A stretch of 64,000 bases of DNA from Acidobacteriota bacterium (GCA_965263035.1 OZ253580.1:5376001-5440000), one strand, 5' to 3'; positions 25,409 to 45,648 are shown, counted from the first letter of the stretch. Notes: generated from the sequence alone by a model not told the origin. Made by a program: numbers and translations.

Positions 25409-25474
25409 CCTCTATGAGGGTAACGCTCGAGTCGGGATTTTCTTAGAAAAATGCGGCGAAACGACGGCTTGCGG

Positions 25475-25579
25475 CGGCAATCAGTGACCGGTCCGGCCCT
25501 GAAGGAGGTCCACGGCGTGGGGAAGCAGTTTGAGGACGGCGTCCAGAGATTCGACGGCGCCTTTGGGGCTGCCCGGGAG
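25475..25579. repeat. Island boundary direct repeat (att-like): duplicated mogA 3' end
   Basis: 105 bp matching 49847-49951 with 3 mismatches. Confidence 0.92.
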
Positions 25580-26077: not shown

Positions 26078-26197
26078 CGCCTGCGGTCCGCAATCAAGAG
26101 GCTCCGCCGCAAACTCGGCGATCACGCCGCCGGACCCGCCTACATCTTTAACCAGCACGGTGTCGATTACCGTGTCCCGGAGCAGGAGGAGAGATAG
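26078..26197 (+). pseudogene. Relic of an OmpR/KdpE-type winged-helix C-terminus
   Basis: RSAIKRLRRKLGDHAAGPAYIFNQHGVDYR resembles the end of the Trans_reg_C domain. Confidence 0.55.
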
Positions 26198-26689: not shown

Positions 26690-29644
26690 ATGCCCTTCTT
26701 GACTACCCTATCCCCCCCACTTCCCGGTACCCGCATCGTAGTCCGTGACGCCGAGTGGGTGGTACGCCGCGTCGACCCCATGCGCGACGGCGGTTCACAG
26801 CTCACCTGCACCGGTGTCTCTGAACTGGTGCGGGAGCGCGAAGCCGTCTTCCTGACCCGCCTCGAGAATCAGATCAAGGTCCTGGACCCGGCCACAACCA
26901 CCCTCGTCCCCGACACGTCGCCCCGATTCACCCGTAGCCTTCTCTACATGGAGAGCCTGCTACGCCGCGCGGTGCCCAACGACCAGCGCATCCGGGTGGC
27001 CCGTAGCGCCGCCATGGACCAGGTGCCATACCAGCTCGATCCGGCCCGCCAGGCGCTCCGGCAGCCGCGCCAGAGGATCCTGATCGCCGACGACGTGGGC
27101 CTTGGTAAGACCATCGAAGCGGGTATTCTCGTGAGCGAACTCATTGTCCGGGGACGGGGCCAGCGCATATTGGTGGTCGCCGTCAAGAGCATGCTCACGC
27201 AGTTCCAGAAAGAGTTCTGGAACCGGTTCACCATCCCACTCACGCGCTTGGACTCGGTGGGCATCCAGCGGGTACGGCGCCGGATTCCGTCGAACCACAA
27301 TCCGTTCCACTACTACGACAAGTCGATCATCTCGATCGACACGCTCAAGCAGGATCGTGAGTACCGGACCTACGTGGAGAACGCCTGGTGGGACATCATC
27401 GTGATCGACGAGGCTCACAACGTGGCGGAACGGGGATCACGGTCGCTGCGCAGCAAGCTCGCGAAACGGCTCGCCAAGAGGTCTGACACGCTCATCATGC
27501 TGTCGGCCACCCCACACGACGGAAAGGCGCGCAGCTTCGCCAGCCTGATGAACATGCTCGATCCGACCGCAATCGGGGATCCGGACGACTTCACGCGCGA
27601 GGACTTCCAACACAAGGGCCTGGTGATCCGCCGCTTCAAGAAGGACGTGCGTGAGCAGGTGAAGCAGTCTTTTCGGGATCGCAAGATCTTCCCCGAATCG
27701 TTCCCGCTCTCAACCGAGGAGGAGACCGCCAACAATGTACTTCTGGCTGTAAGGGTGCGCGGCCAGGCCACTGGCGGCGGGCGGAAACTGTTCTCCGTGA
27801 CGCTAGAGAAAGCCCTGTTCTCAAGCCCCGCCGCCTGCCTTGAGACCGTGGAGAGACGCCGAAATCAACTAGAGCGGGAGCTTGCCGATCAACACAAACC
27901 GGAAAGCTGCGACATCATTCGCCGTGAGCTTGAAGGACTCGGAGCGCTGACCGACGCACTCAAAGCCATCCGGCCTGTCAACTTCGCCAAGTACCAGGCA
28001 CTCCTCCGTGCCATCCGCGGAGACGAGCCCTTCCGCTGGAAACCCGGGAACCGGCGGGACCGGCTGGTCGTTTTCAGCGAGCGCATCGCGACCTTGCGCT
28101 GGCTTCGAGAACGTCTAACGCATGATCTGCGGCTCCGGCGAAATCAAGTCGGCCTGCTTCACGGCGGCCTCTCTGACACCGACCAGCAGGAGATCGTCGA
28201 GGCGTTTGGCAACGAAACGACGCCGCTCCGGCTTCTCTTGGCGTCGGACGTGGCGTCCGAGGGGATCAACCTGCACCATCAGTGCCACCGGCTCATCCAC
28301 TTTGACATCCCCTGGTCGCTCATGGTGTTCGCCCAACGCAACGGACGGGTGGATCGCTACGGGCAGCGTCGGGACCCCCAGATCGTGTACCTGTTGTCCG
28401 AGAGCGTCAACCAGACGATCCGAGGCGACGCGCGCGTTCTGGAGGTGCTGATCGAGAAAGACGAACAGGCTCACCGAAATATTGGTGACCCGTCGATCTT
28501 CATGAACCAGTACGACGTGGATGCCGAAGAGGACGTAACCCGGCGTGCGATCGCGGCTGGCGAGAGCGCCGAGGACTTCGACACGCGTCTGACTCCCAAA
28601 ACGAGTGAAGGCGACGACTTGATGGCGCTGTTCCTGGGGAGGGGACCGACAACCACAGAGGAGCCGACCAACGACCGGGTTGCCTTGGGGCAGTTACGCA
28701 GACTGGACAGTAACGGCCGGGGCGGATCGGCCAACGACTCCATCCCCGAGTCAATCTTTGCCAGCGACCTGACCTACGTGGAAGCGGCCCTCGAACACCT
28801 GCGCGAGTCACATCCGGAGCTCGACTCCCGTGTTGACCATGCATCGCAGACACTAACCCTGGACGCGCCGACCGATCTGCGCGCGCGTTTCCGTCAGGCG
28901 CCGCCCGAGATCAGGCCTAAGGCTTGGCGCTTCGTGCTCACCGCCGATCGGACGGCTATGGAAGCGCAGATCACCGAGAGTCGGCGCCAAGAGTCCCACT
29001 GGTCGCGGGTTCACTACCTGTGGCGGCTGAACCCTATCGTACAGTGGCTCAACGACCGCATGCTTGCCTCATTCGGGAGGCACGAGGCCCCGATCCTCGC
29101 CGGTGTCCCGGGGTTGGAGCTAGGCGAGGCCGTATTCGTCTTGGCGGGACACGTCGCCAACCGGAAGGGTCAGCCCCTCGTGTCGGATTGGATTGCGGTC
29201 CCGTTCCGAGGAAGCGAAGCGATGGATGTGGAACCGTTCGCCGCATACGCAAAGAGCATCGGGCTGGGCCGCACGCTATTCGCCAATGTGGGAGCCGATG
29301 TGGACGTGGAGCAGTTGAAGGCGGTACTCCCCGAGGCGGTGGAGCTTGCCCAGATGTGGGTGGGAGACGAAGCGCGCAAGTTCGGGACGCGCATGGAAGC
29401 CGAGCGCCACAAGGAACTCGAGGCGTTGGCAGCACTCCAGACCCGCCGAAGGGAACAGATCGAATCCAGGTGGAAAATCTCCTACCAACTGCCGATCGCC
29501 GGAATAGACAACTGGCGCGCCAAGAACGAGTTGCAAGAAGCGGAAGAAGCGTTTGCCGATTACTGCATCTGGGTCGAGGATACGATGACGATCGCGGGCC
29601 CGCCGCAGATGTCCGTCGTGGCCGTCCTCACCGGAAAGAGCTGA
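26690..29644 (+). CDS. SNF2/RapA-like SF2 helicase (DrmD-like)
   Basis: LIADDVGLGKT, DEAH, LSATPHDG, SEGINL and QRNGRVDRYGQ motifs. Confidence 0.9.
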   Translation: MPFLTTLSPPLPGTRIVVRDAEWVVRRVDPMRDGGSQLTCTGVSELVREREAVFLTRLENQIKVLDPATTTLVPDTSPRFTRSLLYMESLLRRAVPNDQRIRVARSAAMDQVPYQLDPARQALRQPRQRILIADDVGLGKTIEAGILVSELIVRGRGQRILVVAVKSMLTQFQKEFWNRFTIPLTRLDSVGIQRVRRRIPSNHNPFHYYDKSIISIDTLKQDREYRTYVENAWWDIIVIDEAHNVAERGSRSLRSKLAKRLAKRSDTLIMLSATPHDGKARSFASLMNMLDPTAIGDPDDFTREDFQHKGLVIRRFKKDVREQVKQSFRDRKIFPESFPLSTEEETANNVLLAVRVRGQATGGGRKLFSVTLEKALFSSPAACLETVERRRNQLERELADQHKPESCDIIRRELEGLGALTDALKAIRPVNFAKYQALLRAIRGDEPFRWKPGNRRDRLVVFSERIATLRWLRERLTHDLRLRRNQVGLLHGGLSDTDQQEIVEAFGNETTPLRLLLASDVASEGINLHHQCHRLIHFDIPWSLMVFAQRNGRVDRYGQRRDPQIVYLLSESVNQTIRGDARVLEVLIEKDEQAHRNIGDPSIFMNQYDVDAEEDVTRRAIAAGESAEDFDTRLTPKTSEGDDLMALFLGRGPTTTEEPTNDRVALGQLRRLDSNGRGGSANDSIPESIFASDLTYVEAALEHLRESHPELDSRVDHASQTLTLDAPTDLRARFRQAPPEIRPKAWRFVLTADRTAMEAQITESRRQESHWSRVHYLWRLNPIVQWLNDRMLASFGRHEAPILAGVPGLELGEAVFVLAGHVANRKGQPLVSDWIAVPFRGSEAMDVEPFAAYAKSIGLGRTLFANVGADVDVEQLKAVLPEAVELAQMWVGDEARKFGTRMEAERHKELEALAALQTRRREQIESRWKISYQLPIAGIDNWRAKNELQEAEEAFADYCIWVEDTMTIAGPPQMSVVAVLTGKS

Positions 29645-32600
29645 CCGAGAATGAGCGTTAGCGCACCTGGCGTTTTAGCCGGAATCTCAAACGAGAACGA
29701 GTTCTTCAGCCACCACTACCTGTCTGAGCTCTTTCAGGGCGATATCAGGGAGACGGTGAATCGGTGGAACGAGGCCGAGGCCGCCGACTCGGAACGCACC
29801 TCCCCGCACAAACGGCTGTGGGCCCTACGTAAAACGCACACCCAGTTGCTGCGCCGAGCCCAGAATGCCAGGGATCACGCCGCCCAGTTGGCGCACCAAC
29901 GGGAATGGCACCGAGAGCTTCTGGGCGCGCTCGGCTACGATTTCCGCCCCGCGAACCACCGCCTCGAAGACGGCGACGAGATCCCGGTTCTTTGCACAGC
30001 CGGAGGCCAAGGACCGGACGGGGGCGGCACAGCCGCAGGCAAAGCGCAGCGTTCCCCAAGCCTGCTGGCCTTCGCGGCCTTTGCCGGGAATGTTGGTTCG
30101 ACTGAAGACCCGCTCACCGCCCGTCCCTCGGCCCTACAGTTCCACGGCGAGGTGCCGCCGCCCGAAGATCTCCTCGACGAGAACTGGGAGCATATTGTTA
30201 CCCGTCGGGTCTTTGCCCAGAATCGTCCGCCCCGCTGGCTGCTCCTGCTCTCATTCAGTCAGCTCGTTTTGATCGAGCGTGGCAAGTGGGCGCACAGCCG
30301 CCTCCTCCGCTTCGACTTCGAGGAGATAATGGGGCGCGCCCAACGCGCCGAGGACGCCACACTCAAGGCAACCGCCGCTCTGCTTCACCGCTTCTCGCTC
30401 CTCCCGGACGAGGGTGCCCAGCCGCTGCTGGACGGCTTGGACGAGAACAGCCATCGCCACGCCTTCGCGGTCTCTACCGATCTGAAGTACGCCATGCGTG
30501 AGTCGATCGAGCTCGTCGGCAACGAGGCGATCCGCTACCTGCGCGAGGTGAGCCGCGAGCGCGTTTACAACCTCGACGACCGCCTGGCGGGCGAATTGGG
30601 CTTGGAGTGCGTCCGATACATGTACCGGTTGCTATTCCTTTTCTATATCGAGGCGCGGCCAGAGCTGGGCTACGCCCCGGTCAACTCCGACGCTTATCGT
30701 GCGGGGTACAGCCTCGAACGGCTGCGGGATCTGGAGCTGGTCGAGCTCGCCACGGAGGAATCGCGCAACGGTTTCCACCTTCACGAGAGTATCCAGACTC
30801 TTTTCCGCCTGATTCGGGACGGGTTCGACGGGCACCACTGGGGTGGGAGCGTAGACCTCTTCGCCTCTCCCACCCTCCTACGGCACGGCTTCCGCATCCG
30901 CGCGCTGGACAGCGCACTATTTCGCGAGGGCTCCACCCCCCTTCTGGACCGCGTGAAGCCGCGCAACCACGTACTGCAGCGCGTGATCGAGCTGATGTCG
31001 CTGAGCCGCCCCGTGAAGGGCCGTGGACGCAAGCGCCGGGGCCGCATCTCGTATGCGCAGCTCGGTGTCAACCAGTTGGGCGCGGTCTACGAGTCGCTCC
31101 TGTCGTACCGCGGCTTCTTCGCCGAGACCGATCTGTACGAGGTAAAGAAGGCAAAGGACAAGCAGGACGACTTGGCGGGAGCATGGTTCGTGCGAGCCGA
31201 GGAGCTTGACCGCTACGCCGAAAACGAGCGCGTCTACGATACCGACGAGAACGGACACAAGCGGCTGCGCAGGCACGCCAAGGGATCGTTCATCTACCGG
31301 TTGCGGGGGCGGGATCGCGAAAAGTCGGCCAGCTACTACACCCCAGAGTCGCTCACGCGATGTCTTATTAGACATAGTATGCGCGAGTTGATATCGAATT
31401 CGACATCAGCAGACGAGATCCTGGACCTGACGGTATGCGAGCCGGCGATGGGGTCGGCCGCTTTCCTGAACGAGGCCGTCAACCAGTTGGCCGAGCTGTA
31501 CTTGGAACGCAAGCAGAAGGAGCGGGGCGAACGGATCCCACACGAGCAGTACCCCGACGAGCTTCAGCGCACTAAGCGCTTCATCGCCGACCGCAATGTG
31601 TATGGTGTGGACCTGAACCCGGTGGCGGTGGAGCTAGCTGAGGTATCCCTCTGGCTCAACGCCATTCATAGGGACGGGCATGTGCCGTGGTTCGGGTACC
31701 AGTTGGCGTGCGGCAATTCACTGGTAGGGGCTCGGCGGCAGGTGTACCCGAGGGCGCGACTGCGGGGCCGGAAGAAGGCCGATCTGTGGTTTGACAAGGC
31801 TCCAGAGCGGGTGGCGCCGGGACCGGAGGGGCCGGAGCTGAAGCGGCCGCGGGAGACCATCTACCACTTCCTGCTACCCGATCCGGGAATGGCGCACTAC
31901 GGCAACAACCTGGCAAGGAAGCTGGAGCCCGGGAACTTCAAGCGGTTGAAGAAGTGGCGGCGTACCTTCTTTCAGGCGTTTGCGCCCGACGACACCGCCG
32001 AATTGGAGCAACTTTCGGATGCGGTCGACAGGCTCTGGACGCTTCACACCCGTCAACTCGTCCGGGACCACCGCGATACCGAAGATCCCCTGCCGGTGTG
32101 GGGTCACCCCGACCCTGTACGGGCGGGAAGCTCGAACGAATGGAAGGACCGAATTCGTCACCAAGGCATCTTCGCCGAAAGCACGGCCAGCCCCTACCGG
32201 CGCCTGAAGTTGGTGATGGACTACTGGTGCGCGCTGTGGTTTTGGCCGGTGTCGCGGGCAGCCGACCTCCCGTCGCGGGACGAATTCCTTACCGAGATCT
32301 CGCTGGTGCTCACCGGGGATGTGCGGCCTCCGGGGCGGCAGCCGTCGCAGAGCGACCTGTTCGGTGAGGAGTACGCTGAGCACGCGGGCGACATGGCGGC
32401 AGAGATCTTGGACGAGGTAGGGATGCTGGACTTGGACCAGCTCTTCAAGGTGTTTCCGCGCCTGAAGCTAGTTAACGAACTTGCCAGTCGGCACCGGTTC
32501 CACCACTGGGAGTTGGTGTTTGCAGACGTGTTCTACGGGCACCGCGCGAATGGTGAGGTGCGGGGGGGCTTCGATCTGGTGGTGGGGAATCCGCCATGGG

Positions 32601-34147
32601 TGAAGGTGGAGTGGGAGGAGAAAGCTGTCTTGGGCGAGTTCGATCCGTTGGTTGCAGTGCAGACGATCCGACCTCGGGACGCTACCCGTAGGGTGGAGGC
32701 TGCCGTCGCGGCGGACGCAGCGGTAGGTGCTGCGTGGTTCGCGGAGATGGAAGCCACGGCAGGGACCCAGACCTTCCTGAACGCTACTCAGAACTACCCG
32801 CTCTTGTCGGGCCAGAAAGTCAACCTCTACAAGTGCTTTCTGCCGATGGCATGGAAGATGGCCAGCCAGAGTGGAGTGGTGGGCCTGCTGCATCCGGAAG
32901 GTCCGTATGACGACCCTAAAGCGGCGATCCTTCGGGCAGCCATGTATCCGAGACTGCGAGGCCACTTCCAGTTCATCAATGAACGCAAGCTGTTCCCGGA
33001 GGTCGATCACCACACCAAGTTCAGCATCAACATCTATGGAGATGGAGTCAGAGCCGACGAGAAAGGGCGTTCCCCCGACTCGGTAGCGTTTACACACATC
33101 GCTAATCTCTTCGCGCCGGCCACAGTGGACGTTTGTCTGGAGCATGATGGAAGTGGCCTAGTCCCCGGAGTAAAGGATGGCCACGGCGATTGGAACGTCG
33201 CCGGGCATTTGCAGCGGATGATCCCCGTTTCTTTGGACGAGCTCGGGTTGTTTGCCGCGTTGTATGATGAGCCGGACACGCCACCGCTCGAAGCTCGCCT
33301 GCCGGCGCTGCACACCCGGCGCCTTGTGGCCGCTCTGGACAGATTGGCAGCTCAGGGAATGTCCTTGGGGGACGTACGTAACGACATCAAGATCACACCC
33401 GGATGGAATGAGACGATTGCCCAGCGCGACGGCACGATCCGCCGCGACACCGCTTTCCCAGAAGACCCGGACGAGGTCATTTTCTCGGGACCGCACTATT
33501 TCTGCGGCAATCCGCTGTATAAGACTCCCCGACGCTCGTGCACGAAGAACAGCGACTATGACGTTCTCGATCTTGGCGAACTGCCAGACGACTATCTGCC
33601 GAGGACAAATTATGCAAGAGCCTGCGACCGCGGAACCTACGAATCGCGGACGGACGAGGTGGTGTGGGTTGAGCGAGGGAAGGCAAACGCACGCAGAGTT
33701 ACTGACTACTACCGAGTGATCAATCGGGAGATGGTCGGGTCGGGCTCTGAGCGGACATTGAGTACGGCGGTTGTTCCGAAGGGTGCCGGACACATTCATA
33801 CAAACCTGTCCACGGCATTCCGCGACACCGCTCTTTGCTGCGACTTTGCTGCGCTCACGATGTCGATCGCCTTGGACTTTTTCGTCAAGACAACAGGCAC
33901 CGGTCATGTCAACCTGTCCTACTTGCACCGCTTCCCCCTCCTCCCGCCCAACTGCCACCCAGACCTCAACTCCGCCATCCGCCTTCGGGCCCTCATTCTC
34001 AACTGCCTCACCAGTCACTACGCCGATCTCTGGGAGGAGCTTTTCGTCCCCAAGTTCCGCCGAGACTCCTGGGCCAAACCAGATCCACTCCTTCCCGCTT
34101 CGTTCTTCGCAGACCTCACCCCGTTCTGGTCTCGCCACGTGGCACTG

Positions 34148-35930
34148 TGAAGGTGTCCCGTTTTCGTGGACGGTTTATTAGTGCGGTTTACGTTGGTCTA
34201 GGTTGTAATACTCCTTCTGTCGTTGGGGAGCAAGACTTCCTCCCGCTGAATGTCAATGGCCATAGAAAATGTCAGGGTTTTGACCATTGACAGAGCGTTC
34301 TTTCTTCTGTGGGGGGACTGATGGAGGCGTCAGCAAAAGGGCTCACGTTGTGGGAAATCTCTGATTTTCCACAATGGGATACCGCGTAACGAGGGGGCCT
34401 CGGCGCTTTCTTTCCAGGGATTTAAGAGTGGTGTGTATCTCTTTGCATCCGGGGGTCTCAGGGGGGCAGCGCCCCCCTGCCCTCTTCAATCGTGTCGCGC
34501 GCGACGCTTGGTGCGACGGTGATGGTGCTGGCTTCGTGGTCGAGCAGCGCGAAAACGAACCGGTTCGTGAGGCGGCGTCAGTCCTTCTGAGCCTCCCGGC
34601 CCGCAGGACCGGCATTGGAGGCAGGAAAGACGACCCCAGCAGGTCATCACTGCACTCGGCGAGAGCACGAATCGAGGATCTCGTCGTCCGGATCGAGTTT
34701 CGACGACGCCGTGGGTCCTACGCTGCCTGCTGCTCGTAGCGGACCGGCGACTCGTAGCCCAGCGCCGAGTGTCGGCGGCGCCGGTTGTAGAATCCCTCAA
34801 TGAAGTCGAAGACGGTCCGCCTCGCCTGATTCGGATTCCGGAACTGGTGACGGTCCAGCAACTCGCATTCCAGCGTCGCGAAGAAGCTCTCGCACATCGC
34901 GTTGTCGTAAGCGTCCCCCACCGAGCCCATCGACGGCCGCACCCCGGCCTCCCGGCATCTCTTCCCGAAGGCCGTCGAGGTGTATTGTGCCCCCTGGTCC
35001 GAGTGGTGGATCACCTGCTTCGGCTGTCGCCGTATCACCGCCATGGCGAGCGCATTCTCGACCAGTTCGGACCGCAGATGGGTCTCCATTGCCCAGCCCA
35101 CGACCATTCGGCTCCAGGCGTCCAGGACCACGGCCACATACAACCAGCCCGCCTGCGTGCGAACATACGTCAGGTCCGCCACCCAGAGCTGATCCGGTCC
35201 CTCAGCCGCGAAGTTCCGGTTCACCAGGTCCGGTGCGGGACGCGCCTTCCGGTCCCTCCGGGTGAGCCCGGCCTTCCGGTGCCTCCGGCTCACCCCCTGA
35301 ATTCCCGCTTCCCGCATCAATCGGCCCACACGCTTCGGGCTCGTCCGTTCCCCTCGAGCTCTCAGTTCGGCATGCAGACGAGGCCGACCGTAAACTCTCC
35401 GGTTCTCGTTCCAGATCTGCACGATCTTTTCCCGAAGCGCCTGGTCCTGGCGAGCCCGGTTCGAGGGCAGACGTTTCAACCAGGCGTAGTACCCACTGGG
35501 GGAGAGACCCAACACGCGGCACATCACCCGAATCGGAAACTGGGCCCGGTGCGCCTTTACGCGCCTCGAATCCTTTCCGGGGATCGAGTCGCTCTCCCGG
35601 GCGAACCAAGCCGCGGCTTTTTTTAGGATGTCCCGCTCCATCCGCAGGCGCTTGATCTCCCGCCTCGCCTGACGCAACTCCTGGCGCTCGAACTTCGTCA
35701 ACCCGTCGCTCCGGTGCCCCTCGTCCAGATCGGCCTGCTTGACCCACTTCCGGATCGCCGAAGCCGAGGGCTCGAACTCCCGCGCCAGTGCCTCCGGCGA
35801 TCGCCCCGAGCGCACCAGCCCTACGATCTCCCGCCGGAACTCCGGCGGATACCGTCTCTGCTTTCTTGCCATCGTGGATCCCTCCTTACTCCCCTACTTT
35901 GGATGTGTCCACGAAAGCGGGTCAACTCCA
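34148..35930 (-). mobile_element. IS3-family insertion sequence, 1783 bp
   Basis: TG...CA ends, 24-bp terminal inverted repeats (20/24 match), CTG target duplication at 34145-47 and 35931-33. Confidence 0.93.
34718..35872 (-). CDS. IS3-family transposase (OrfA and OrfB in one frame)
   Basis: HTH N-terminus, WVADLTY, HHSDQGAQY, DNAMCESFF and YNRRRRHS (DDE) motifs. Confidence 0.93.
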   Translation of the reverse strand: MARKQRRYPPEFRREIVGLVRSGRSPEALAREFEPSASAIRKWVKQADLDEGHRSDGLTKFERQELRQARREIKRLRMERDILKKAAAWFARESDSIPGKDSRRVKAHRAQFPIRVMCRVLGLSPSGYYAWLKRLPSNRARQDQALREKIVQIWNENRRVYGRPRLHAELRARGERTSPKRVGRLMREAGIQGVSRRHRKAGLTRRDRKARPAPDLVNRNFAAEGPDQLWVADLTYVRTQAGWLYVAVVLDAWSRMVVGWAMETHLRSELVENALAMAVIRRQPKQVIHHSDQGAQYTSTAFGKRCREAGVRPSMGSVGDAYDNAMCESFFATLECELLDRHQFRNPNQARRTVFDFIEGFYNRRRRHSALGYESPVRYEQQAA

Positions 35931-36394
35931 CTGCGCACCGATTACGCCCGCCGCCAAACCCTCGTCGAAATCGACGTACTCACCGCCATGGCCTTCGGTC
36001 TCACCCTAGACGAGCTGTGCACCATCTACCGCGTCCAGTTCCCCATCCTGAAGCAATACGAGCGAGATACTTGGTATGACCGCAACGGCCGCATCGTCTT
36101 CACCGTCTCCAGAGGTTTAGTCGGGGTCGGCCTCCCACGAAAGAAGCGGAAGGACGACATCTGCTACGGCATCCGCACGGACCGACGCCACGAGTACGGC
36201 ATCGCCTTAGGCTGGGAAGATATCCGCGACTTGAAGCACGGCGTCGTCACCCGCGCGATCATGGACGACACCCTCCCCGGCGGCCCTTTCGAGCGCACCA
36301 TCGAGTACCTCGCACCCTTCGACCGCTGTGACCGGGAAGAGGACTACCGCACAGCGTGGGCCGCCTTCGAAAAGCGGCTGAGGCACGTGCCCAA

Positions 36395-39300
36395 ATGATT
36401 CCTAGTGTCGTCGCCGCCGAAGCCGCCCACGCGCTACGCGACTTCCTCGTAACCGGGTTCACCCCGTCAAACCCGGAGTTGGCGAGCGTCATCGACGACT
36501 TTCTGGCCGAACCCGCGAATCTGACCCGCGGTCCGTACCTGTCGTTGGCGTTGCCCTTCCGCAAAGCTCCTGGTGACGAGCCGTTTCCACAGGTGCCGCT
36601 GGAGTTTCCCCCCTACCACCACCAGCGCGTCGCCATGGATCGCCTGGCGAGTGCTTCGGGGAAGTCCACGGTAGTCGCCACCGGCACCGGCTCGGGCAAG
36701 ACCGAGTGCTACATGCTGCCCATTCTCGATCATTGCCGCGAACAGGCAGGTAAGCCCGGAATCAAGGCGATCATCATCTACCCAATGAATGCGCTTGCGA
36801 TGGACCAGGCGACTCGGATCGCGCGCGCTATCCACCGCAACTCCGCTCTGCACCGCAGGATTACGGCAGGGATGTACGTGGGCGGGCGCGAGGAGACGCC
36901 TCGCAAGAGGATGGCGGCCGAGCACATCATCACGGATCGCGAAACCTTGCGGCGGAACCCGCCGGACATCCTGCTGACGAACTACAAGATGCTCGATTAC
37001 CTGATGATCCGGCCCGGTGACCAGCGGCTCTGGCGGCACAACGAGCCGGGGACGCTCCGGTACCTAGTGGTGGACGAACTGCACACCTATGATGGTGCCC
37101 AGGGGACGGACCTTGCATGTCTGATCCGCCGGCTGCGGGCGCGGCTCCAAGTTCCGTCGGATGGGTTGGTGTGCGTAGGCACGTCGGCGACGATCGGGAC
37201 GGGCGACGATGCCCCGGTGCGTGACTACACGTCTCGCGTCTTCAACCAGGAATTCGAGCCGGGCTCGGTAGTGGGCGAGACTCGGCAGGCGGACGAGGAG
37301 TTCCTGAGCGGAGCGCTCATCACGGGCTACTTGCTCCCAACGGACGGGCTGGCGGAGATCCTGGATCCGCGTCGGCATGCCACGAGTGCATCGTATTCGC
37401 GCGCAGCCCACGAGGCATTCATCAACGAGCCGCCCGCGGGGGATCCGGATGCGGACGACTGGAAGGTTGCGCTCTCGGATCGGCTGCGCGAGCACACGGC
37501 ATTCCGGAATCTTCTACAGGTATTGAGCGGGGAACCGAAGCCGCTTCCTGAGGTAGCGGCGACGCTACGCCGGACTTTGCCTGTCGAGAGCGACGAAGAG
37601 GCCGCGGCGGTGCTCAACGCGCTTTGTGCGCTGATCTCGGCTGCACGCCTGCGCGACGATAACGGAGACCTTCGGCCCTTCTTGGATGTGGGAGTTCACC
37701 TCTGGGTGCGGGAGTTGGGGCGCATGGTGTGCAGCGTATCGGAGGGGGGCGTAAGCGAGTCGGCCGCGGCGGGTCCCGTCCGGCGGCTGCGCCATTCGGA
37801 CGAGCTGCAGGCCCCCAGCGCGGACGATCGAAGCACCGCCCGGTCCGTCCACCTTCCGCTCATTCAGTGCCGCGAGTGCCGCGTGACCGGCTGGGCGGCG
37901 GTGAAGCGAGCAAATGAGCCCTGTGTCGAACCAGACCTGCGCGTGTTCTACAACATGTTCTTCCGGCGGGATGTGGACGTGCGGTTTCTGTTCCCGGGGG
38001 ACAAGCCGACAATACGGTCGGCCCAGCACATGCTATGTGGGCGATGTGGGGGGTTGAGTATGGATGGGAAGGAAAGCGGTGCGGGCGACGCCCCCGCGTG
38101 CGTCAGGTGCGGATCAAGCCGGGTAGTCTGGCTGCATGTGCCGGACGCGGTGAAGACCCGCCGCCGCAATGGGAGGGAGGTCGCTGAACTGAGCCGGGAC
38201 TGTCCTTACTGCCGTGCAAGTGAGGGGCTGATCATCTTCGGCGCCCGTGCCGCCAGCCTTATCAGCGTGCTGTGCAGCCAGACGTTCGCTTCACACCACA
38301 ACGACGATCCCAAGGCGCTGGTCTTCTCCGACAACGTTCAGAATGCCGCGCACCGTGCCGGGTTCGTGGCGGCGCGTAGCCGACAGACGCACACTCGTGC
38401 GGCAATCACCCATGCGGCCGCTGCCCACGACGGGATCTCCCTCAAGCGTCTACCCGGGGTGGTGGCCCAACACTGGCGGGAACGGGCGGTCGAACCCGAG
38501 GATTTCGTTGGCGAGCACATCGCCGACGATTGTCGCTGGATGCGGGATGTCGCGCATCTTGAGCGCGAGGGGAATCTCCCGTCGGGCTCCAATCTTGCCA
38601 AACTGGTGGGTCGGCGCATGGAGTGGGAAACTCTTCGCGAATTCACCTTCGGGTCTGGTATCGGCCGGACGCTGGAGCGGACCGGCGCGGCAGCCGTCGC
38701 ACTCGATCGCGAGCGTGTGCAAAAGGCGTATCGGACGGCCCACACCCGCATCCGGGAAGAAGTGGGCGGCCTCCGCGACATGGGCGAGGACGCCGTGCGT
38801 GCACTGGTTCTGGGTGTGCTACGGCACATGAAGGACCGGGGGGCCGTGAAGCATGCGCTGATGAAGGCGTATCTGGATGGCGGCGGCAATCCCTGGGTCT
38901 GGCACCGCGATCCGGCTTTGCCGCGATTTGGCCTGCGCTCGCTGATTCCCGTTTTTCCAGTCTGCCCCGACACCTCCGGATCGCGTTCGTTCACCCGGTC
39001 CCGCTCTCGTTCCCACGAAGGCGTGGAAGAGGTCGCCGGCGCGGGTGGGCGGCGATCCTGGTATCGGGGCTGGTGCGAGTCGGTGCTGGCAGGCGAGAGC
39101 GCACTGGGCCCGGCAGAGTCTGGTCATGTTCTCCGGCTGGTGTTCGCTGCACTCCAGCACTCGGGACTGGTCAACAAGGTTGCGGCAAAATCCCAATGGG
39201 TGTGGGCCTTGGAGCCCGGACGCCTCTCAGTCACCACTGACGCCACCTTCCTCCAATTGGACGGACCGGGACGCCCTCTTTCCGTCGCTGCCGCCGACGC

Positions 39301-42300
39301 GGATCTGTGGGCGGGTGTTCCCCGCCTCGATGCCCCTGTGACTTCCAGCCGCTATCGCCGCCCGGACCACTCTGGTTCACGCTACTCGGACTCGCCTACC
39401 TGGTTTGGCCGGTTGTATCGGGACGGACAGGTCCGCCGCATCGTCGCCGCCGAACACACAGCCCTGGTGGAACGCGAGGATCGGGAGCGTCTTCAGCGGA
39501 TTTTCGCGAAGCCGAACAGGGTGCGTCGGCCCTGGGAGCCCAATCTGGTGTCAGCCACTCCCACTCTGGAACTGGGAATTGACATCGGCGATCTGTCCAC
39601 CGTGACCCTTTGCTCTGTTCCACCACGTACAGCCAGCTACCGCCAGCGGGCGGGGCGGGCGGGGCGCCGAGATGGAAATGCCCTGATCCTCACCGTCGCC
39701 AACGCCGAGCCTCACGACCTCTATTTCTACGCCGATCCTCTGGAAATGCTGGCTGGCGGCATCGAGCCGCCGGGCATTTTCCTCGACGCAGTGGCAGTCC
39801 TGGAGCGGCAGATGACCGCGTACTGTTTCGACAACTGGGTGGCGTCCGGGGTTCCCGAAGACGCGGTGCCGCAGAAGATCGGCACGGTGTTGACGAACGT
39901 GGAGAAAGAGCGCCACGAAGGATTCCCGTACCCGTTCTTCGCCTTCGTTCGCAATGAGGAGGAACGGCTGATCAAAGGGTTTCTCGATGCCTTTTCCGAG
40001 GACTTGGCACAATCGTCGCGCGCCGAGTTGCGCAGCTTTGTGCGCGGCGATGTAGACAGGAAGAAGCCGTCGCTCATACTCAAGATCCTCGACCGACTGA
40101 ACGAGGTGATCAAGGAGCGGAGTTCGGTGGCCGCCGACATACGGTCGCTCGGGGAGCGCATTCGCAAGCTGAAGGCCCAACCGGAGGACGAGGCCACCCG
40201 GAACGAAATCGACGAACTCGAGAATGTCCGCAAGGGGCTCCGCGCGGTGCACGGAAAGATCAATGGCCGCGACACATTCAACTTCCTGACCGACGAGGGG
40301 CTGGTGCCCAACTACGCGTTCCCGGAGGCGGGCGTCAAGCTCCGTTCGGTCATACTGGAGCGAAAGGCAGATCGGGGCGAGAAAGGCGGTACAGGGACAC
40401 GGGCCATCACCCACGAATACGAGCGGCCTGCTGCGATGGCGCTGGGAGAATTCGCGCCGGAGAACCGCTTCTATGCACGCGCGCACCAAGTTGAGATCAG
40501 CCGCGTGGACACACGCGTCTCCGAACTGGAACGTTGGCGAATGTGCCCGTCCTGCGTCTACGCCGAGAATGTGGATGCCGGGGACCACCACACAGCCTGT
40601 CCCCGTTGCGGCAATGTGCAGTGGCAGGACAGCGGACAGTTGCGCGACCTGCTCAAACTCCGGCTGGTACACGCGGTAGCGGACGCTCGCACCAGCCGCA
40701 TCGACGACCAGAAGGACGACCGCGAGCACCTCTTCTACACTCGGAACCTGATCGCGGACTTCGATCCCGCCGATGTCCAGCACGCCTACGCGATCCGCAA
40801 TGCCGACGCCGCGTTCGGGTTCGAGCACATCGCGTCGGCCACATTCCGTGAAGTCAACTTCGGGCGAATGGGCCAGCCCACACAGTCGGTCAGGGTGGCG
40901 GGGATGCAGCTTCCCCGCGAGGGATTCCGCATTTGCCGACGGTGCGGCATGGTCAACCCGGGCCCGGGCTCGGAGCCAAAACACATGCCCACGTGTCCGG
41001 CGCGGCGGGCAGGGCGAGATGCGATCGTCGACTGTCTGTACCTGTATCGCGAGTTCCAATCGGAAGCGATCCGCATGTTGCTGCCCGCGACGGTCGGGCC
41101 CGACGCGGAGCGCTGCGAGCGTTCGTTTGTGGCGGCCCTGGAGCTTGGGCTCCGTCGACGGTTCGGCGGAGAGATCGCGCATCTGCGTGCCATGACCTGT
41201 GCGTACCCTGTCGAGGGGTCGGACCAGCCGCAAAAGTATGTGCTGCTTTACGACACCGTTCCGGGAGGCACGGGTTACCTGAAAGACCGGATGACGGCGC
41301 CGGAGAGGCTGCTTTCGGTATTTGAGGCGGCGCTGGCAGCGATTGAGGAATGCCCGTGCAACCAGGATCCGGAAAGGGACGGTTGCCACCGCTGCGTTCT
41401 GGGGCATCGGCGCAGCCGAGACATGCAGGACACCTCACGCGAGACAGCCCGTCAGCTACTGCGGAACATCTTGGATGCCCGTGACCATCTCGAGCAGGTG
41501 GAAGGGTTGCGCAAGGTACGGGTCGTGGTGCAAACAGACAGCATTCTGGAGGATCGCTTCATCGAGGCGCTGCGCCGGGTGGCGGTTGCGGACGGCCGAC
41601 AGCCTTCGCTCCGCTATGACCTGGTCGACGGAAAGCCGGGATACGTACTTGGCGTCGGCAGCGGTGACGCGGGTGGGCAAGTTTGGTACGTCGTGCCACA
41701 GGTGGACGTTGGGCTCGCCGATGGCGTCTTGCACCCCAGCCGTCCCGACTTTCTGATCCGCCCTGCCAAGGCTTCAGCCGTGCACCCGCCCGTAGCGGTG
41801 TTCATGGATGGGTTCGAGTACCACCGGGATCGCGTCGATGACGATTCCGTCAAGCGAATGGCGCTGGTCCGGGCCGGATTCGTGGTGTGGTCGGCAACCT
41901 GGGATGATGTGAAGGTGGTATTGGGCGAAGCGAAGCCGCCGGACGATATGATTCCGGGTAGAGATCCACAGCCGCCGATGGACCAGGTACAAAGGGGGCT
42001 GGAAGCCCAATGGCAGATCTCGGAACTGCGCTCGGCGCTGGGCGAACCGTCCCTCAAACTGCTCGGCCGGTATCTCGCTGAGCCGAATCCCGAATTGTGG
42101 AGGCGGGCCGTGTTCACGCAATTGGTGGGCGAGTTTGACCAGGCGACCATGACATCCGCCGACTTCGCGCAACGGTTTGCGGCAGGGGCCAAAGCAATAC
42201 TTCCAGAAGGCGCAACGGACTTCCTGCACTACAACCCATCAGATGCCCCTGCCCACGAAGCGCACGTGTTTGCGGGCCGCGAAAAATGGCGCGCATCGGG

Positions 42301-42916
42301 CTGGGATGAGCCCGCCGCTCCCTTCGCCCACGGGTTGATCGATATTTTTCTGGCCATGCCGCCATCAGCCCTGCAGCGATTCGACCCGGATGCGATGTGG
42401 GCCGCGATCCATCTTCACGATGACGACCCAAGCCGAGCCCGGGAAGACTTCCAGACCTCGTGGAACGGCGTGCTTCGTCTCTTCAACCTGCTGCAATTCC
42501 TGCCGTTGGCCTGGTGGACGACACGGCGGGGAACGGAAGCGAACCTCTACCACGAGCTCCCCATCAAGTCACACCCATGGCTGGCCTCCCTTTCCCACCA
42601 AGCAGACGGCCCGGAGACCGCGAGTGCCTGGGCCGACGCGCTTAGGTTCGCCGCCAGTGAACTTGAGGCTGATCTGCTGCGGCTCCGAGAACGGGACCTT
42701 CCTCCACCTGAAGCTGGCTTTGAACTCACGGGGCCGAGGGGCCGGGTCCTGGCAGAGGCCGAACTGGGTTGGGAAGACCATCGGGTTGCCGTCTTGATGA
42801 CAGACCGGAGCGCGGACCGCTTTACCTTCGAATCGCGCGGTTGGCGCGTTCTCCTCGCTCACGCCGACGACCTCACGAAATCGGTTGCCCCCCTCCTCAC
42901 CGGAGGCCCATCATGA
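36395..42916 (+). CDS. Giant DEAD/DEAH (YprA/DrmA/DruE-like) helicase with Zn fingers, DUF1998 and a putative C-terminal nuclease, ~2173 aa
   Basis: TGTGSGKTE, YPMNALA, DELH, LELGIDIG, QRAGRAGR, several CxxC pairs, YDTVPGGTGY...CxC...GCHRC, RPDF...FMDGFEYH; ATGA overlap at 36395. Confidence 0.9.
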   Translation: MIPSVVAAEAAHALRDFLVTGFTPSNPELASVIDDFLAEPANLTRGPYLSLALPFRKAPGDEPFPQVPLEFPPYHHQRVAMDRLASASGKSTVVATGTGSGKTECYMLPILDHCREQAGKPGIKAIIIYPMNALAMDQATRIARAIHRNSALHRRITAGMYVGGREETPRKRMAAEHIITDRETLRRNPPDILLTNYKMLDYLMIRPGDQRLWRHNEPGTLRYLVVDELHTYDGAQGTDLACLIRRLRARLQVPSDGLVCVGTSATIGTGDDAPVRDYTSRVFNQEFEPGSVVGETRQADEEFLSGALITGYLLPTDGLAEILDPRRHATSASYSRAAHEAFINEPPAGDPDADDWKVALSDRLREHTAFRNLLQVLSGEPKPLPEVAATLRRTLPVESDEEAAAVLNALCALISAARLRDDNGDLRPFLDVGVHLWVRELGRMVCSVSEGGVSESAAAGPVRRLRHSDELQAPSADDRSTARSVHLPLIQCRECRVTGWAAVKRANEPCVEPDLRVFYNMFFRRDVDVRFLFPGDKPTIRSAQHMLCGRCGGLSMDGKESGAGDAPACVRCGSSRVVWLHVPDAVKTRRRNGREVAELSRDCPYCRASEGLIIFGARAASLISVLCSQTFASHHNDDPKALVFSDNVQNAAHRAGFVAARSRQTHTRAAITHAAAAHDGISLKRLPGVVAQHWRERAVEPEDFVGEHIADDCRWMRDVAHLEREGNLPSGSNLAKLVGRRMEWETLREFTFGSGIGRTLERTGAAAVALDRERVQKAYRTAHTRIREEVGGLRDMGEDAVRALVLGVLRHMKDRGAVKHALMKAYLDGGGNPWVWHRDPALPRFGLRSLIPVFPVCPDTSGSRSFTRSRSRSHEGVEEVAGAGGRRSWYRGWCESVLAGESALGPAESGHVLRLVFAALQHSGLVNKVAAKSQWVWALEPGRLSVTTDATFLQLDGPGRPLSVAAADADLWAGVPRLDAPVTSSRYRRPDHSGSRYSDSPTWFGRLYRDGQVRRIVAAEHTALVEREDRERLQRIFAKPNRVRRPWEPNLVSATPTLELGIDIGDLSTVTLCSVPPRTASYRQRAGRAGRRDGNALILTVANAEPHDLYFYADPLEMLAGGIEPPGIFLDAVAVLERQMTAYCFDNWVASGVPEDAVPQKIGTVLTNVEKERHEGFPYPFFAFVRNEEERLIKGFLDAFSEDLAQSSRAELRSFVRGDVDRKKPSLILKILDRLNEVIKERSSVAADIRSLGERIRKLKAQPEDEATRNEIDELENVRKGLRAVHGKINGRDTFNFLTDEGLVPNYAFPEAGVKLRSVILERKADRGEKGGTGTRAITHEYERPAAMALGEFAPENRFYARAHQVEISRVDTRVSELERWRMCPSCVYAENVDAGDHHTACPRCGNVQWQDSGQLRDLLKLRLVHAVADARTSRIDDQKDDREHLFYTRNLIADFDPADVQHAYAIRNADAAFGFEHIASATFREVNFGRMGQPTQSVRVAGMQLPREGFRICRRCGMVNPGPGSEPKHMPTCPARRAGRDAIVDCLYLYREFQSEAIRMLLPATVGPDAERCERSFVAALELGLRRRFGGEIAHLRAMTCAYPVEGSDQPQKYVLLYDTVPGGTGYLKDRMTAPERLLSVFEAALAAIEECPCNQDPERDGCHRCVLGHRRSRDMQDTSRETARQLLRNILDARDHLEQVEGLRKVRVVVQTDSILEDRFIEALRRVAVADGRQPSLRYDLVDGKPGYVLGVGSGDAGGQVWYVVPQVDVGLADGVLHPSRPDFLIRPAKASAVHPPVAVFMDGFEYHRDRVDDDSVKRMALVRAGFVVWSATWDDVKVVLGEAKPPDDMIPGRDPQPPMDQVQRGLEAQWQISELRSALGEPSLKLLGRYLAEPNPELWRRAVFTQLVGEFDQATMTSADFAQRFAAGAKAILPEGATDFLHYNPSDAPAHEAHVFAGREKWRASGWDEPAAPFAHGLIDIFLAMPPSALQRFDPDAMWAAIHLHDDDPSRAREDFQTSWNGVLRLFNLLQFLPLAWWTTRRGTEANLYHELPIKSHPWLASLSHQADGPETASAWADALRFAASELEADLLRLRERDLPPPEAGFELTGPRGRVLAEAELGWEDHRVAVLMTDRSADRFTFESRGWRVLLAHADDLTKSVAPLLTGGPS

Positions 42917-45042
42917 CCCCACGTGCCCGGCTGGCCATTTCCAGCGACTTCCTGGAGGCCTACGCGTTCCTTCCCAAGCCCCAACAGCGCAAGGTCCGTA
43001 CCCTGATCACGCAGTTTACGGCCGATCCGACGTCTCCCGGTCTGAACTACGAGCGCGTTCAGGCGGCGGACAGCTTGCGTTCGCTCCGAATCGACAGGTC
43101 CTACCGGGCGATCGTGCTCAAGCCGAAACGCGGCAGCGTCCATCTGATGCTGTGGGCGGACAAGCACGACGAGGCCTATGACTGGGCGCGTCGGCATCAC
43201 TGCCGTGTCAACCCAGATACCGGTGCCCTGCAAGTCTACGAGCCGCAAGAGCCCTCCGAAGCAGTCCATAAGGCAGCCAGTCCGGCGGACATCCCATCAC
43301 AGCCCGGGCCGTTTGCCGCCTTGCGGGACCGCCAGCTACGTCGGCTCGGTGTTCCCGAAGCAATGCTCCCCGAGATCCGAGTGCTCGATGGGGAACCAGC
43401 GCTCGACGCCATCCAGAAGCGCCTTCCCGTGGAAGCCTACGAATCCCTCTTTCTCTACCTGGCCGGAGACAGCTACGAGGAGTTGATCCGCAACCGCGAA
43501 GCCCCCGACGACAAGGTGGACACCGACGACATCGCCAAGGCCCTGGAGCGAATGGAATCGAGGGGACGGTTCGTTGTCGTGGACAACGAAATGGAACTCG
43601 AGGAGGTGCTAAGCGCCCCGTTGGAGAAGTGGCGAGTGTTCCTGCATCCGTCGCAGCGTCGCTTGGTCGAAAGACCATGGAACGGTCCGGTGCGCGTCCT
43701 TGGTGGCGCCGGAACAGGAAAGACCGTGGTGGCCATGCACCGCGCCCGCTGGCTTGCCCGCAACTTGCCCGAAGGCGAACGCATTCTCTTTGTGACCTTC
43801 ACACGGAACCTCGCAGCGGACATTGAGAACAATCTGCGCTCCATCTGTTCGCCGCAGGAGATGAGGCGCATAGATGTGACCAACCTTGATCGCTGGGTGT
43901 ACGGCTTCCTGCGGCGGCGAAGCTACGACTTCCGCATCGTCTACTCCCGTGGGCAGGCGCAGTGGAACAAGGTTTGGCAGCAGGCACTTGCGCTCAAGGA
44001 CCCCGGTCTCAACCTGCCCGACGCCTTCTACTCAGACGAACTTGACCAGATTGTCCTGGCCCACGGGATCACCATCGAAGCTGAGTACCTTCGCGTTCCG
44101 CGCGCCGGACGTGGCACGCCGCTGCGCCGCGCACAGAGGGCCCGGGTGTGGCCGGTCTTTGAAGAGTACCGCCTGAACCTGTCGCTCCAAGGCGGCAAGG
44201 AGATGGACGACGCCTACCGCGCAGCCGCCTCACTGCTGGCGGACGACCGGGGTAGCCTGGCCTACACTGCGGCCATCGTTGACGAGGCGCAGGACATGGG
44301 CGCACAGGCTTACCGGCTGATGCGTGCCCTCGTGCCCGAAGGGCCTAACGACCTCTTCGTCGTCGGCGACGGGCACCAGCGGATCTACGGCCGCAGCCGC
44401 GTCGTCTTGGGGCAGTGCGGTATTCGTATCGTGGGACGCTCATACAAGCTCAGGATCAACTACCGCACCACGGAGGAAACTCGTTCCTGGGCGGTACGTC
44501 TCCTCGACGGGCGGGAGATAGACGATCTGGATGGTGGCCTGGACGACCACAAGGGCTTCAAGTCTCTTACGCATGGGCCCTCGCCCCAAGTCATCGTATT
44601 CGACTCGGCTGAGCAGCAAGCTGAATTCATCGTCCGGTGGCTGGGCGACTTGGCCGGACGTGGCGAGCGCCTGCGGAGCACGTGCATCGTGGCGCGGACC
44701 CGGGCGGAGCGAGATTCCGTAAGGCAAGCGATCGAGGAAGCAGGTCTGCCCGGCGTCGTCCTCGAACAGGACCTTCCCGACGATGCCGGCGATGACGCCG
44801 TGCGCCTGGCGACCATGCACCGGGTCAAGGGACTGGAATTCGACCGCGTCATCATGGCCAGTTTGAACGAAGGCCTCGTTCCGCTGCCCAGAGCCATCAA
44901 GGGGCACGCCGATGACAACGCCCGCGAGTGGGCGGAGACTGAAGAGCGGGCGCTGGTGTACGTCGCGGCGACGCGAGCTCGGAAGGAGCTACTCGCGCTC
45001 GGGCACGGCGTGGCGAGCTCTTTCGTGAGCGGGCATGGATAG
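42913..45042 (+). CDS. UvrD/Rep-like SF1 helicase with a RelE/ParE-like N-terminal domain
   Basis: FLHPSQ, GGAGTGKT, VDEAQD, GDGHQRIY, NYRTT, TMHRVKGLEF and YVAATRAR motifs; ATGA overlap at 42913. Confidence 0.9.
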   Translation: MTPRARLAISSDFLEAYAFLPKPQQRKVRTLITQFTADPTSPGLNYERVQAADSLRSLRIDRSYRAIVLKPKRGSVHLMLWADKHDEAYDWARRHHCRVNPDTGALQVYEPQEPSEAVHKAASPADIPSQPGPFAALRDRQLRRLGVPEAMLPEIRVLDGEPALDAIQKRLPVEAYESLFLYLAGDSYEELIRNREAPDDKVDTDDIAKALERMESRGRFVVVDNEMELEEVLSAPLEKWRVFLHPSQRRLVERPWNGPVRVLGGAGTGKTVVAMHRARWLARNLPEGERILFVTFTRNLAADIENNLRSICSPQEMRRIDVTNLDRWVYGFLRRRSYDFRIVYSRGQAQWNKVWQQALALKDPGLNLPDAFYSDELDQIVLAHGITIEAEYLRVPRAGRGTPLRRAQRARVWPVFEEYRLNLSLQGGKEMDDAYRAAASLLADDRGSLAYTAAIVDEAQDMGAQAYRLMRALVPEGPNDLFVVGDGHQRIYGRSRVVLGQCGIRIVGRSYKLRINYRTTEETRSWAVRLLDGREIDDLDGGLDDHKGFKSLTHGPSPQVIVFDSAEQQAEFIVRWLGDLAGRGERLRSTCIVARTRAERDSVRQAIEEAGLPGVVLEQDLPDDAGDDAVRLATMHRVKGLEFDRVIMASLNEGLVPLPRAIKGHADDNAREWAETEERALVYVAATRARKELLALGHGVASSFVSGHG

Positions 45043-45121: not shown

Positions 45122-45144
45122 TGACCTGCCCCGTTTTCACGGAC
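45122..45144. repeat. Isolated IS3-type terminal inverted repeat
   Basis: TGACCTGCCCCGTTTTCACGGAC resembles the ends at 34148 and 35930; no partner end or transposase nearby. Confidence 0.5.
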
Positions 45145-45179
45145 GATTAGTTCTTGGGGTTGATGGTGTCTGATTTGGT

Positions 45180-45648
45180 TTCCTCTCGACGATCCCACGC
45201 CGCTTATACCTGCGGAGGCGGTGCCCGTCCTGCGTCTTCGGGCGCCTCCGGTTCCTCCGGTGGGGCGCGACCATCTCGACGCCTCGCTTCTTGACCTCCG
45301 CGTCCAGAGGATCGCTGTCGTACGCCTTGTCGCCGACCAGGTTCTCCGGGAGATCGTCAATGAGCACCAGATCGAGTCTCAGCTGGACGAGCTTGGCTTC
45401 ACGCCGTCGGGCCGAGTGGGTGCCGATGGACAGCGGAAGACCGCAACGGTCCAAGATCGCCATGATCTTCACATCTTTTCCGGCCTTCGTGAGCCCCACA
45501 CCCGCGCCTCCGCCCTTCGCACGTGCGAACGAAGGCGTCAATGAACGCCTCCGACCCGTCGAGCACCCGAACCTCTTGGAGTTTCCGAAGCGAAATCCTG
45601 CAAAACGTCCGCCAGCACCCCGTTGCGGCAGCATCTGCAACTGGGCCC
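45180..45648 (-). pseudogene. IS5-family transposase fragment
   Basis: GVGLTKAGK.VKIMAILD..GLP, LVGDKAYDSD and RYKRRGIVER motifs; truncated at both ends. Confidence 0.8.

Follow-up and report, generated by a model that had tools for sequence, protein, structure and literature searches.

The stretch of DNA examined here, referred to below as the window, comprises 64,000 nt from an Acidobacteriota bacterium (GCA_965263035.1 OZ253580.1:5376001-5440000), and at positions 26690-45042 it carries a set of helicase and methyltransferase genes that very probably represents the defence system ARMADA Type II. A scan for open reading frames (ORFs) found four long co-oriented ORFs on the + strand spanning this interval, and the second gene is split by an insertion sequence (IS). 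The parts of the operon, named after the corresponding arm genes of Escherichia coli, are the following.

26690-29644, + strand: armA, 984 aa, SNF2/BrxHII-like (DrmD-like) helicase; Pfam SNF2-rel_dom and Helicase_C.
29651-34147, + strand: 5' part of armB, codons 1-1499 of a PglX-like N6-adenine methyltransferase; Pfam Eco57I/N6_Mtase.
29651-34150, + strand: the 5' ORF of armB including its stop codon, 1499 aa; the stop TGA at 34148-34150 is formed by the first three bases of the IS.
35931-36398, + strand: 3' part of armB, 155 codons including a duplicated Leu; its stop overlaps the start of armC (ATGA).
36395-42916, + strand: armC, 2173 aa, YprA-family DEAD/DEAH helicase with OB-CON-DUF1998 (MZB) and predicted C-terminal Vsr-like nuclease domains.
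42913-45042, + strand: armD, 709 aa, with a RelE-like N-terminus (approximately residues 1-100), a helical linker and a GajB-like UvrD helicase.

The stop codon of armA (TGA, 29642-29644) is separated from the ATG of armB at 29651 by 6 nt, and the remaining junctions are ATGA stop/start overlaps at 36395-36398 (armB/armC) and 42913-42916 (armC/armD). The frame of armC is open from 36356, with the ATG at 36395 as its conserved start. Leaving aside the IS at 34148-35930, the gene order is SNF2 helicase, methyltransferase, YprA helicase and UvrD helicase. A preliminary description of this DNA, made from the sequence alone, had listed four co-oriented genes with a 6-bp gap and two ATGA overlaps that encode three helicases and one NPPW methyltransferase, and the ORFs and junctions as read, the Pfam domains and a GNPPW motif with N980 bear it out in full. 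Each of the four proteins has full-length homologues with E = 0, far beyond chance. A scan for sigma-70 promoters upstream of armA returned no sites, with a consensus that may not suit Acidobacteriota.

Bell et al. 2025 (PMC12458937) describe ARMADA Type II as ArmA, ArmB, ArmC and ArmD in strict order, ArmA being a BrxHII/RapA-like SNF2 helicase, ArmB a PglX-like methyltransferase and ArmC a YprA-like helicase with a fused Vsr-type nuclease, and they call ARMADA a 'missing link' between DISARM and Druantia. The system has been validated in E. coli (PMC12458937, PMC13463889), and DefenseFinder is stated to detect it already (PMC13463889). For comparison, the locus of E. coli ATCC 8739 was found by searching its chromosome with the window ArmC and then reading the annotation. 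The window proteins are 984, 1653 (reconstructed), 2173 and 709 aa long, against 952, 1642, 2113 and 704 aa in E. coli. ArmA and ArmD each share 48% identity with their E. coli counterparts (976 and 708 columns, respectively), while the 5' part of ArmB shares 46% with E. coli residues 3-1483 and the 3' part 54% with residues 1483-1637 (E 1e-44). ArmC is collinear with E. coli ArmC over residues 1-2161 and shares 39% identity with it, or 36% by BLASTP; the E. coli DruE encoded beside ARMADA matches the window ArmC only at residues 73-274 and 1047-1155. All eight of the residues mutated by Bell et al. are conserved in the window proteins.

A quick IQ-TREE phylogeny was built from 13 rows, namely the window ArmC, E. 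coli ArmC, eight ArmC proteins from metagenome-assembled genomes (MAGs), E. coli DruE and two YprA-like proteins from the same genus as the window, with no rows for ARMADA Type I, DrmA or DpdJ. The ten ArmC rows form a clade with an SH-aLRT of 100, apart from the three DruE/YprA-like rows. Of the helicase phylogeny suggested in the preliminary description, this tree covers the comparison with DruE and YprA-like proteins. The comparisons made here identify all four window proteins, by sequence, as orthologues of E. coli ArmABCD. Our conclusion, held with high confidence, is that the locus is an ARMADA Type II system that was horizontally acquired in a defence island of approximately 24 kb and is probably inactive through the splitting of armB by a recently active IS3-family element.

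The likeness to the E. coli systems (NCTC 12900, ATCC 8739 and EDL933) extends to the set of four genes and to their order, orientation and approximate lengths, with 36-54% identity, and includes the eight assayed residues, the RelE-like N-terminus of ArmD, and the nuclease motif and collinear C-terminus of ArmC. The window differs in that its host belongs to the Acidobacteriota, not the Enterobacteriaceae, that its armB is split by an IS, and that it has McrBC as a neighbour instead of an adjacent Druantia III or Zorya II. No tRNA-linked satellite-like element was noticed either, though no search aimed at one was made.

Among the PADLOC models, ArmA matches DrmD (7.6e-103) and BrxHII (5.2e-60), and its Walker A K140 and Walker B D240 correspond to K136 and D236 of E. 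coli ArmA. The best match of ArmB, nearly full length, is REase_MTase_IIG (PDLC03614, 1.7e-222), followed by DrmMI (8.1e-49) and PglX (6.9e-09), and the GxG motif (G601) and the (G)NPPW motif (N980) are present, corresponding to G605 and N971 of the E. coli protein. In residues 1-550 and 984-1499 of ArmB, Pfam (E <= 1) recognised no nuclease family, and the C-terminal fragment gave nothing significant. A stand-alone Type IIG enzyme, as the PADLOC label of armB would have it, is disfavoured by the lack of a nuclease match in these two regions and by the dependence of the orthologous E. coli ArmB on three partner genes.

In ArmC, Pfam recognises DEAD, Helicase_C and MZB (MrfA Zn-binding/DUF1998, 1.3e-11), and the best PADLOC models are DruE1 (1.6e-102) and DruE3 (3.5e-95). 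K102 and D227 correspond to K110 and D234 of E. coli ArmC. In the description of Bell et al. (PMC12458937), RecA1 of ArmC is followed by a BrxA-like insert and RecA2 begins with a CxxC Zn-binding beta-barrel, and the C-terminus of the protein carries a Vsr-type PD-(D/E)xK domain, predicted to be active, that is often followed by inactivated EEP and Vsr domains. The window ArmC contains CxxC motifs at residues 492-606 (four) and 1384-1667, the first cluster lying in the region where these authors place the beta-barrel; the insert region gave no significant Pfam match (E <= 1). The first nuclease-like domain contains the motif SRPDF...FMDGFEYH (residues 1782-1810), invariant in all 13 aligned sequences, and the form RPD[FY]...F[ML]DGF..H is common to the window and E. 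coli proteins, whose C-termini are collinear. The fold matches of this domain are weak, and in Pfam a weak MTES_1575 match appears in 10 of 13 relatives and none for the window sequence, the C-terminus of which gave no significant Pfam match at E <= 1. As modelled here, the last domain (residues 2085-2173) has a Vsr-like fold, its nearest structural neighbours being Vsr-like endonucleases. Foldseek with the whole multi-domain C-terminal model of 484 residues found no match in the PDB at E <= 0.001, and the A2 profile matched nothing in the PDB by hmmsearch at E <= 10.

ArmD contains Pfam UvrD-helicase and UvrD_C, matches the PADLOC model GajB (7.8e-29) and has K270 and D457, equivalent to K266 and D454 in E. 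coli. Its residues 1-235 were modelled with AlphaFold2 on 11 sequences (pLDDT 80.9), and when the N-terminal model was compared to the PDB with Foldseek the RelE, YoeB and YafQ toxins came top, with a TM score (target) of 0.70-0.79 and a probability of 1.00; the best match was 3bpq_B (E 5.3e-4, TM (target) 0.79). In the model the N-terminus of ArmD accordingly folds as RelE, and Pfam gives a weak ParE_like match (E 0.01). A phmmer search of the PDB with ArmC and ArmD returned no ARMADA structure, the nearest entries being a 2108-aa 'DEAD/DEAH box helicase' (9tu7, 1.1e-40, a local match), YprA/MrfA (6znp) and UvrD/PcrA.

The PADLOC check proposed in the preliminary description could be carried out but did not name the system, as PADLOC-DB 2.0 (2023) holds no ARMADA model and labels the genes DrmD, REase_MTase_IIG/DrmMI, DruE and GajB. 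Two alternative readings draw on these labels. In one, which we regard as highly improbable, the apparent mosaic would be a new class of system, intermediate between DISARM and Druantia and distinct from anything described; against it, each gene has a full-length orthologue in the validated E. coli ARMADA II, and the architecture is exactly as published (PMC12458937, PMC13463889). The preliminary description had suspected a likeness to the ARMADA class, which the orthology to E. coli ArmABCD confirms at the level of Type II, and its view that the genes form a defence system linked to methylation, akin to DISARM and Druantia yet distinct from them, finds support in the same gene-for-gene match. 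The novelty it had left open is gone, because the locus fully matches a system that is already named and validated. In the other reading, scarcely credible in our judgement, the operon would be a set of independent adjoining modules, a stand-alone Type IIG enzyme, a Druantia-like DruE and a Gabija-like GajB, as the best labels for armB, ArmC (DruE1/DruE3) and ArmD might suggest. However, the overlapping stop and start codons point to translational coupling, this set of four genes is also found together in E. coli, where none is dispensable, neither a DruH-sized ORF nor a GajA match was found nearby, and the N-terminal 550 residues of ArmB contain no recognised nuclease domain.

Class 1 DISARM consists of DrmD, DrmMI, DrmA, DrmB (DUF1998) and DrmC (PLD). 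The window operon resembles it in that ArmA is similar to DrmD and ArmB to DrmMI, and ArmC holds both a DrmA-type helicase core and a DrmB-type DUF1998. In the window, though, the helicase and DUF1998 are fused in the single 2173-aa ORF, as had been claimed from the sequence, a predicted Vsr-like nuclease is fused to the helicase, and the UvrD-like ArmD is added. The claim that there is no PLD gene also held in the ORFs scanned, with no PLD/DrmC match among the four operon proteins and seven neighbouring ORFs (Pfam and PADLOC) or 26 further window ORFs (Pfam). DISARM class 1 was ruled out on the presence of the DrmA and DrmB domains in one ORF and the failure to find a PLD gene. Druantia Type III likewise has a giant helicase of the YprA family that carries DUF1998 and a C-terminal nuclease, but the nuclease predicted in ArmC is Vsr-like rather than PLD, and the window operon also encodes an SNF2 helicase, a methyltransferase and a UvrD helicase. 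DruH gave no PADLOC match, and no unassigned ORF of its size lies beside the helicase; Druantia III was ruled out on this, on a C-terminus that is collinear with ArmC and not with DruE, and on the separate position in the tree. The resemblance to BREX lies in the large NPPW methyltransferase, which is weakly PglX-like, and the BrxHII-like SNF2 helicase, whereas genes for BrxA/B/C/L and PglZ are absent from the window locus and a YprA helicase-nuclease is present. The helicase core of ArmD fits the GajB models of Gabija, but there is no GajA match nearby and ArmD has the RelE-like domain at its N-terminus.

The gap of 2.2 kb between the second and third ORFs is due to a mobile element inside the methyltransferase gene. 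The preliminary description had mentioned an IS in passing; the element exists, and it lies within armB and not between genes. Its features are the following.

34148-35930, - strand: IS of the IS3 family, 1783 bp, with imperfect terminal inverted repeats and TG...CA ends.
34148-34171 and 35907-35930: the inverted repeats.
34718-35872, - strand: transposase ORF, 384 aa, single and unbroken; Pfam HTH_Tnp_1, HTH_21 and rve.
34148-34717: tail of approximately 570 bp without a recognised gene.
34145-34147: left copy of the target-site duplication CTG, which is codon Leu1499 of armB.
35931-35933: right copy of the target-site duplication CTG.

The HTH_Tnp_1, HTH_21 and rve domains place the element in the IS3 family. 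The reading frame of armB stops right after codon 1499, resumes at 35931 and ends at 36398; the two pieces abut at residue 1483 of E. coli ArmB without loss, and the intact protein would be 1653 residues long. The 6.2-Mb genome contains at least 10 full-length copies of the IS with 98-100% identity (loci L007-L016), five of which, including the one in armB, are listed at 100%, and direct repeats of 3-4 bp flank eight of the nine full-length copies examined. Because at least 10 copies share this level of identity, the IS has been active recently. The insertion in armB is probably recent, since armA, armC and armD are undamaged and other copies of the IS have the identical sequence. An IS-free form of the gene was found in a metagenome contig (run X7, record 25) from a relative with approximately 90% identity, which aligns over 784 letters to 33000-33783, then has 364 unaligned letters, the exact length of 33784-34147, and continues at 35934. 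Contigs from X1 and X4 have no differences to both flanks, but extend only 28-29 letters into the IS, short of the 31-letter bridging criterion. A joint of 33036 to 35931 in X6 (side 31, with the intervening letters unknown) was too weak and was not used. The X1, X4 and X6 contigs also show a variant of the IS whose tail is shorter by 145 bp (joint 34520 to 34666).

The E. coli studies bear directly on what this insertion may mean. Defence by E. coli ARMADA II depends on all four genes (PMC12458937, PMC13463889), and the protection, which is directed against many phages, is direct and not by abortive infection, with no cell killing or arrest. Mutations in Walker A or B of ArmA or ArmC, in Walker A of ArmD or in the NPPW motif of ArmB abolished defence, and those in Walker B of ArmD or the GxG motif of ArmB caused only a partial loss (PMC12458937). 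The arm deletion mutants, including ΔarmB, grew in culture, according to the growth curves in PMC13463889. Here the four genes are not all intact, as armB is split after codon 1499. The truncated ArmB ends at residue 1499 and is without its C-terminal 154 residues, a stretch whose conservation equals or exceeds that of the remaining protein (54% against 46% identity to E. coli, and 55-63% against 52-61% to the MAG homologues). The IS lies in the opposite orientation to the operon and parts armC and armD from the operon's upstream region, and no second armB was found in the genome. Given the split armB, the lack of a second copy and the need for every one of the four genes in E. coli, the locus is probably not active.

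The nearest ArmC homologues found are in gammaproteobacterial MAGs (49-52% identity), and their loci (L025-L038, n=14) were compared for gene order. In 9 of the 14, armB and armC are separated by 2.9-9.2 kb, and in four (L028, L029, L033 and L034) the ArmA homologue lies downstream of armD. The genes in the armB-armC gap include a fused PARIS AriAB (PADLOC 1.5e-172), a PDC-M11A-like GNAT protein, a 5-hmdU DNA kinase with MazG, and DUF6791 with ThiF, and in L025 armB is closely preceded by an AbiU/AIPR gene. Example positions in these loci are as follows.

L033: 4131-6227.
L025: 403-2115 and 7067-9463.
L036: 6488-8782.
L034: 7790-9001.

To judge from their sequences, these related loci depart from the 'strict gene order' published for Type II. 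It may be that the 3' end of armB, together with the armB-armC junction, is a site of repeated insertion, the IS of the window lying in the same neighbourhood, and that ARMADA II tolerates modular breakage, though we think this improbable. If it were true, defence by the IS-split locus could persist, with ArmB truncated or in two pieces and with armC and armD driven by the IS, and the published strict order would need revising.

Several points weigh against our reading of an inactive ARMADA Type II or against parts of it. The assignment to Type II rests on the gene order, the presence of ArmD and the orthology to E. coli Type II, not on placement in the published tree with Type I references, and the strict order is itself not universal, as the nearest ArmC relatives lack a contiguous A-B-C-D arrangement. 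Independent read-level support for the IS junction is weak. All of the catalytic region is still there in the truncated ArmB, and the undamaged armC and armD could be driven by an outward promoter in the IS. A system that is still active is one alternative, and in our view an unlikely one: the 1499-residue ArmB would function alone or together with a separately translated C-terminal fragment, and armC and armD would be expressed by read-through or from an outward promoter at the IS end. It is favoured by the position of the catalytic motifs (G601 and N980) upstream of the break, by the uninterrupted armA, armC and armD with all six of their assayed residues conserved, and by the related genomes in which other genes lie between armB and armC, which indicates that tight coupling is not obligatory. 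However, the conservation of the missing ArmB residues and the opposite orientation of the IS argue against it, and intact ORFs are also expected if the insertion is merely recent, the IS copy being listed at 100% identity with four others. Loss of activity through the split armB remains the reading we prefer.

A mechanism for the intact system can be proposed from the set of domains and from the precedents of DISARM DrmAB, Druantia DruE and BREX PglX. DrmAB and DruE act at single-strand/double-strand junctions, and the BREX methyltransferase PglX is required for defence itself. ArmB would methylate adenines in a host-specific motif and so mark the host DNA, and may, like PglX, also be part of the restriction machinery, which would explain why its loss leads to loss of defence rather than cell death. 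ArmA, as an SNF2 translocase, and ArmC, as a YprA helicase, would engage unmodified invading DNA, probably at single-strand/double-strand junctions by analogy with DrmAB and DruE, translocate on it and unwind it, with the UvrD-like ArmD helping in the unwinding, and ArmC would then cut with its Vsr-type PD-(D/E)xK domain.

Outside the operon, the island and its borders contain the following.

22419-25208: VWA, flanking gene.
25451-26197 and 49677-50165: small ORFs of unknown function in the island.
45137-46681, - strand: transposase ORFs between armD and McrBC, a DDE_Tnp_1 fragment (45137-45664) and DDE_3 (45665-46681), not part of ARMADA.
46869-47978, - strand: McrC, Pfam PF10117 (1.2e-25).
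47981-49489, - strand: McrB-like gene, Pfam AAA_5 (1e-26).
51284-52810: NfeD, flanking gene.

The McrBC noted earlier as adjoining the operon was found, separated from armD by the two transposase ORFs, and is a separate system in the same island. VWA and NfeD are 26.1 kb apart in this genome; among the seven same-genus genomes that have both on one contig, the distance is 1.6-1.9 kb in five and 5.3-5.7 kb in two. Because the two genes lie much closer together in these relatives, the ARMADA operon, the two transposase ORFs and McrBC appear, from this comparison, to form an acquired island of approximately 24 kb (about 25209-50300). No close ArmC was found in 40 related genomes, the best matches being partial and sharing 34-44% identity. 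The rest of the window looks like ordinary chromosome, with genes for an OMP_b-brl_4 outer-membrane protein, CitMHS and SSF transporters, HpcH aldolase, MoaE, NfeD/SPFH, a release factor, RecJ and an LptD-like protein, and includes 5677-9306 (- strand) and its surroundings. Among the matches listed for the release factor, one from an Acidobacteriota MAG shares 96% identity and the other 79 share 49-59%, many of these also being from Acidobacteriota, which places the host in that phylum.

Other YprA-like helicases were observed in the same genome and genus. At one locus in the same genome (L040, G000:C1:4626000-4645500), an intact 2106-aa DruE1-like helicase (8059-14379, - strand; PADLOC DruE1 E 0, 1441 bits) is directly followed by a gene for a 621-aa NERD+UvrD-like helicase (6188-8053, - strand), and no DruA-D or DruH match was seen among the neighbours scanned. 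This YprA/UvrD pair recalls ArmC/ArmD, except that a NERD domain replaces the RelE-like one. At another (L039, G000:C1:468000-487000), a third YprA/DruE-like gene is in pieces (8443-8904, 9164-10354, 10468-13872 and 13876-16083), interrupted by a DDE_Tnp_1 transposase ORF and an in-frame stop, with RmrA-like and pAgo/SIR2-related matches nearby; it is a second defence helicase in this genome that has been eroded by a mobile element. In a same-genus relative (L121, G005:C1:362000-381900), a gene for a 1974-aa YprA-like helicase (region 2812-14451) is preceded by KAP-NTPase, NACHT+LRR and SLFN/AlbA_2+HATPase_c_4 genes and followed by a TnpB/Cas12f-like ORF. The YprA-like gene of this relative was considered as a Type I comparator and rejected, there being no ArmA, ArmB or ArmD homologues beside it, and was kept as an outgroup only.

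The locus is thus not a candidate new system but a divergent, IS-disrupted member of the known and validated ARMADA II. It adds to that type a representative from the Acidobacteriota with 36-54% identity to the validated E. coli proteins. The main text of PMC12458937 does not name Acidobacteriota for ARMADA, and in its Table S1 'Acidobacteriota' has 298 occurrences, of which the four passages listed, two of them duplicates, are all Type I rows. For ARMADA, the labels of PADLOC-DB 2.0 mislead, assigning armB to Type IIG, armC to DruE and armA to DrmD and so giving a mosaic of partial systems, and the embedded defence cargo and permuted order of the gammaproteobacterial loci may interest curators of ARMADA detection rules. 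The window provides a natural IS knockout of armB with armA, armC and armD intact, which fits the published growth of ΔarmB mutants and a role of ArmB that is needed for restriction, as in BREX, and not only for self-protection.

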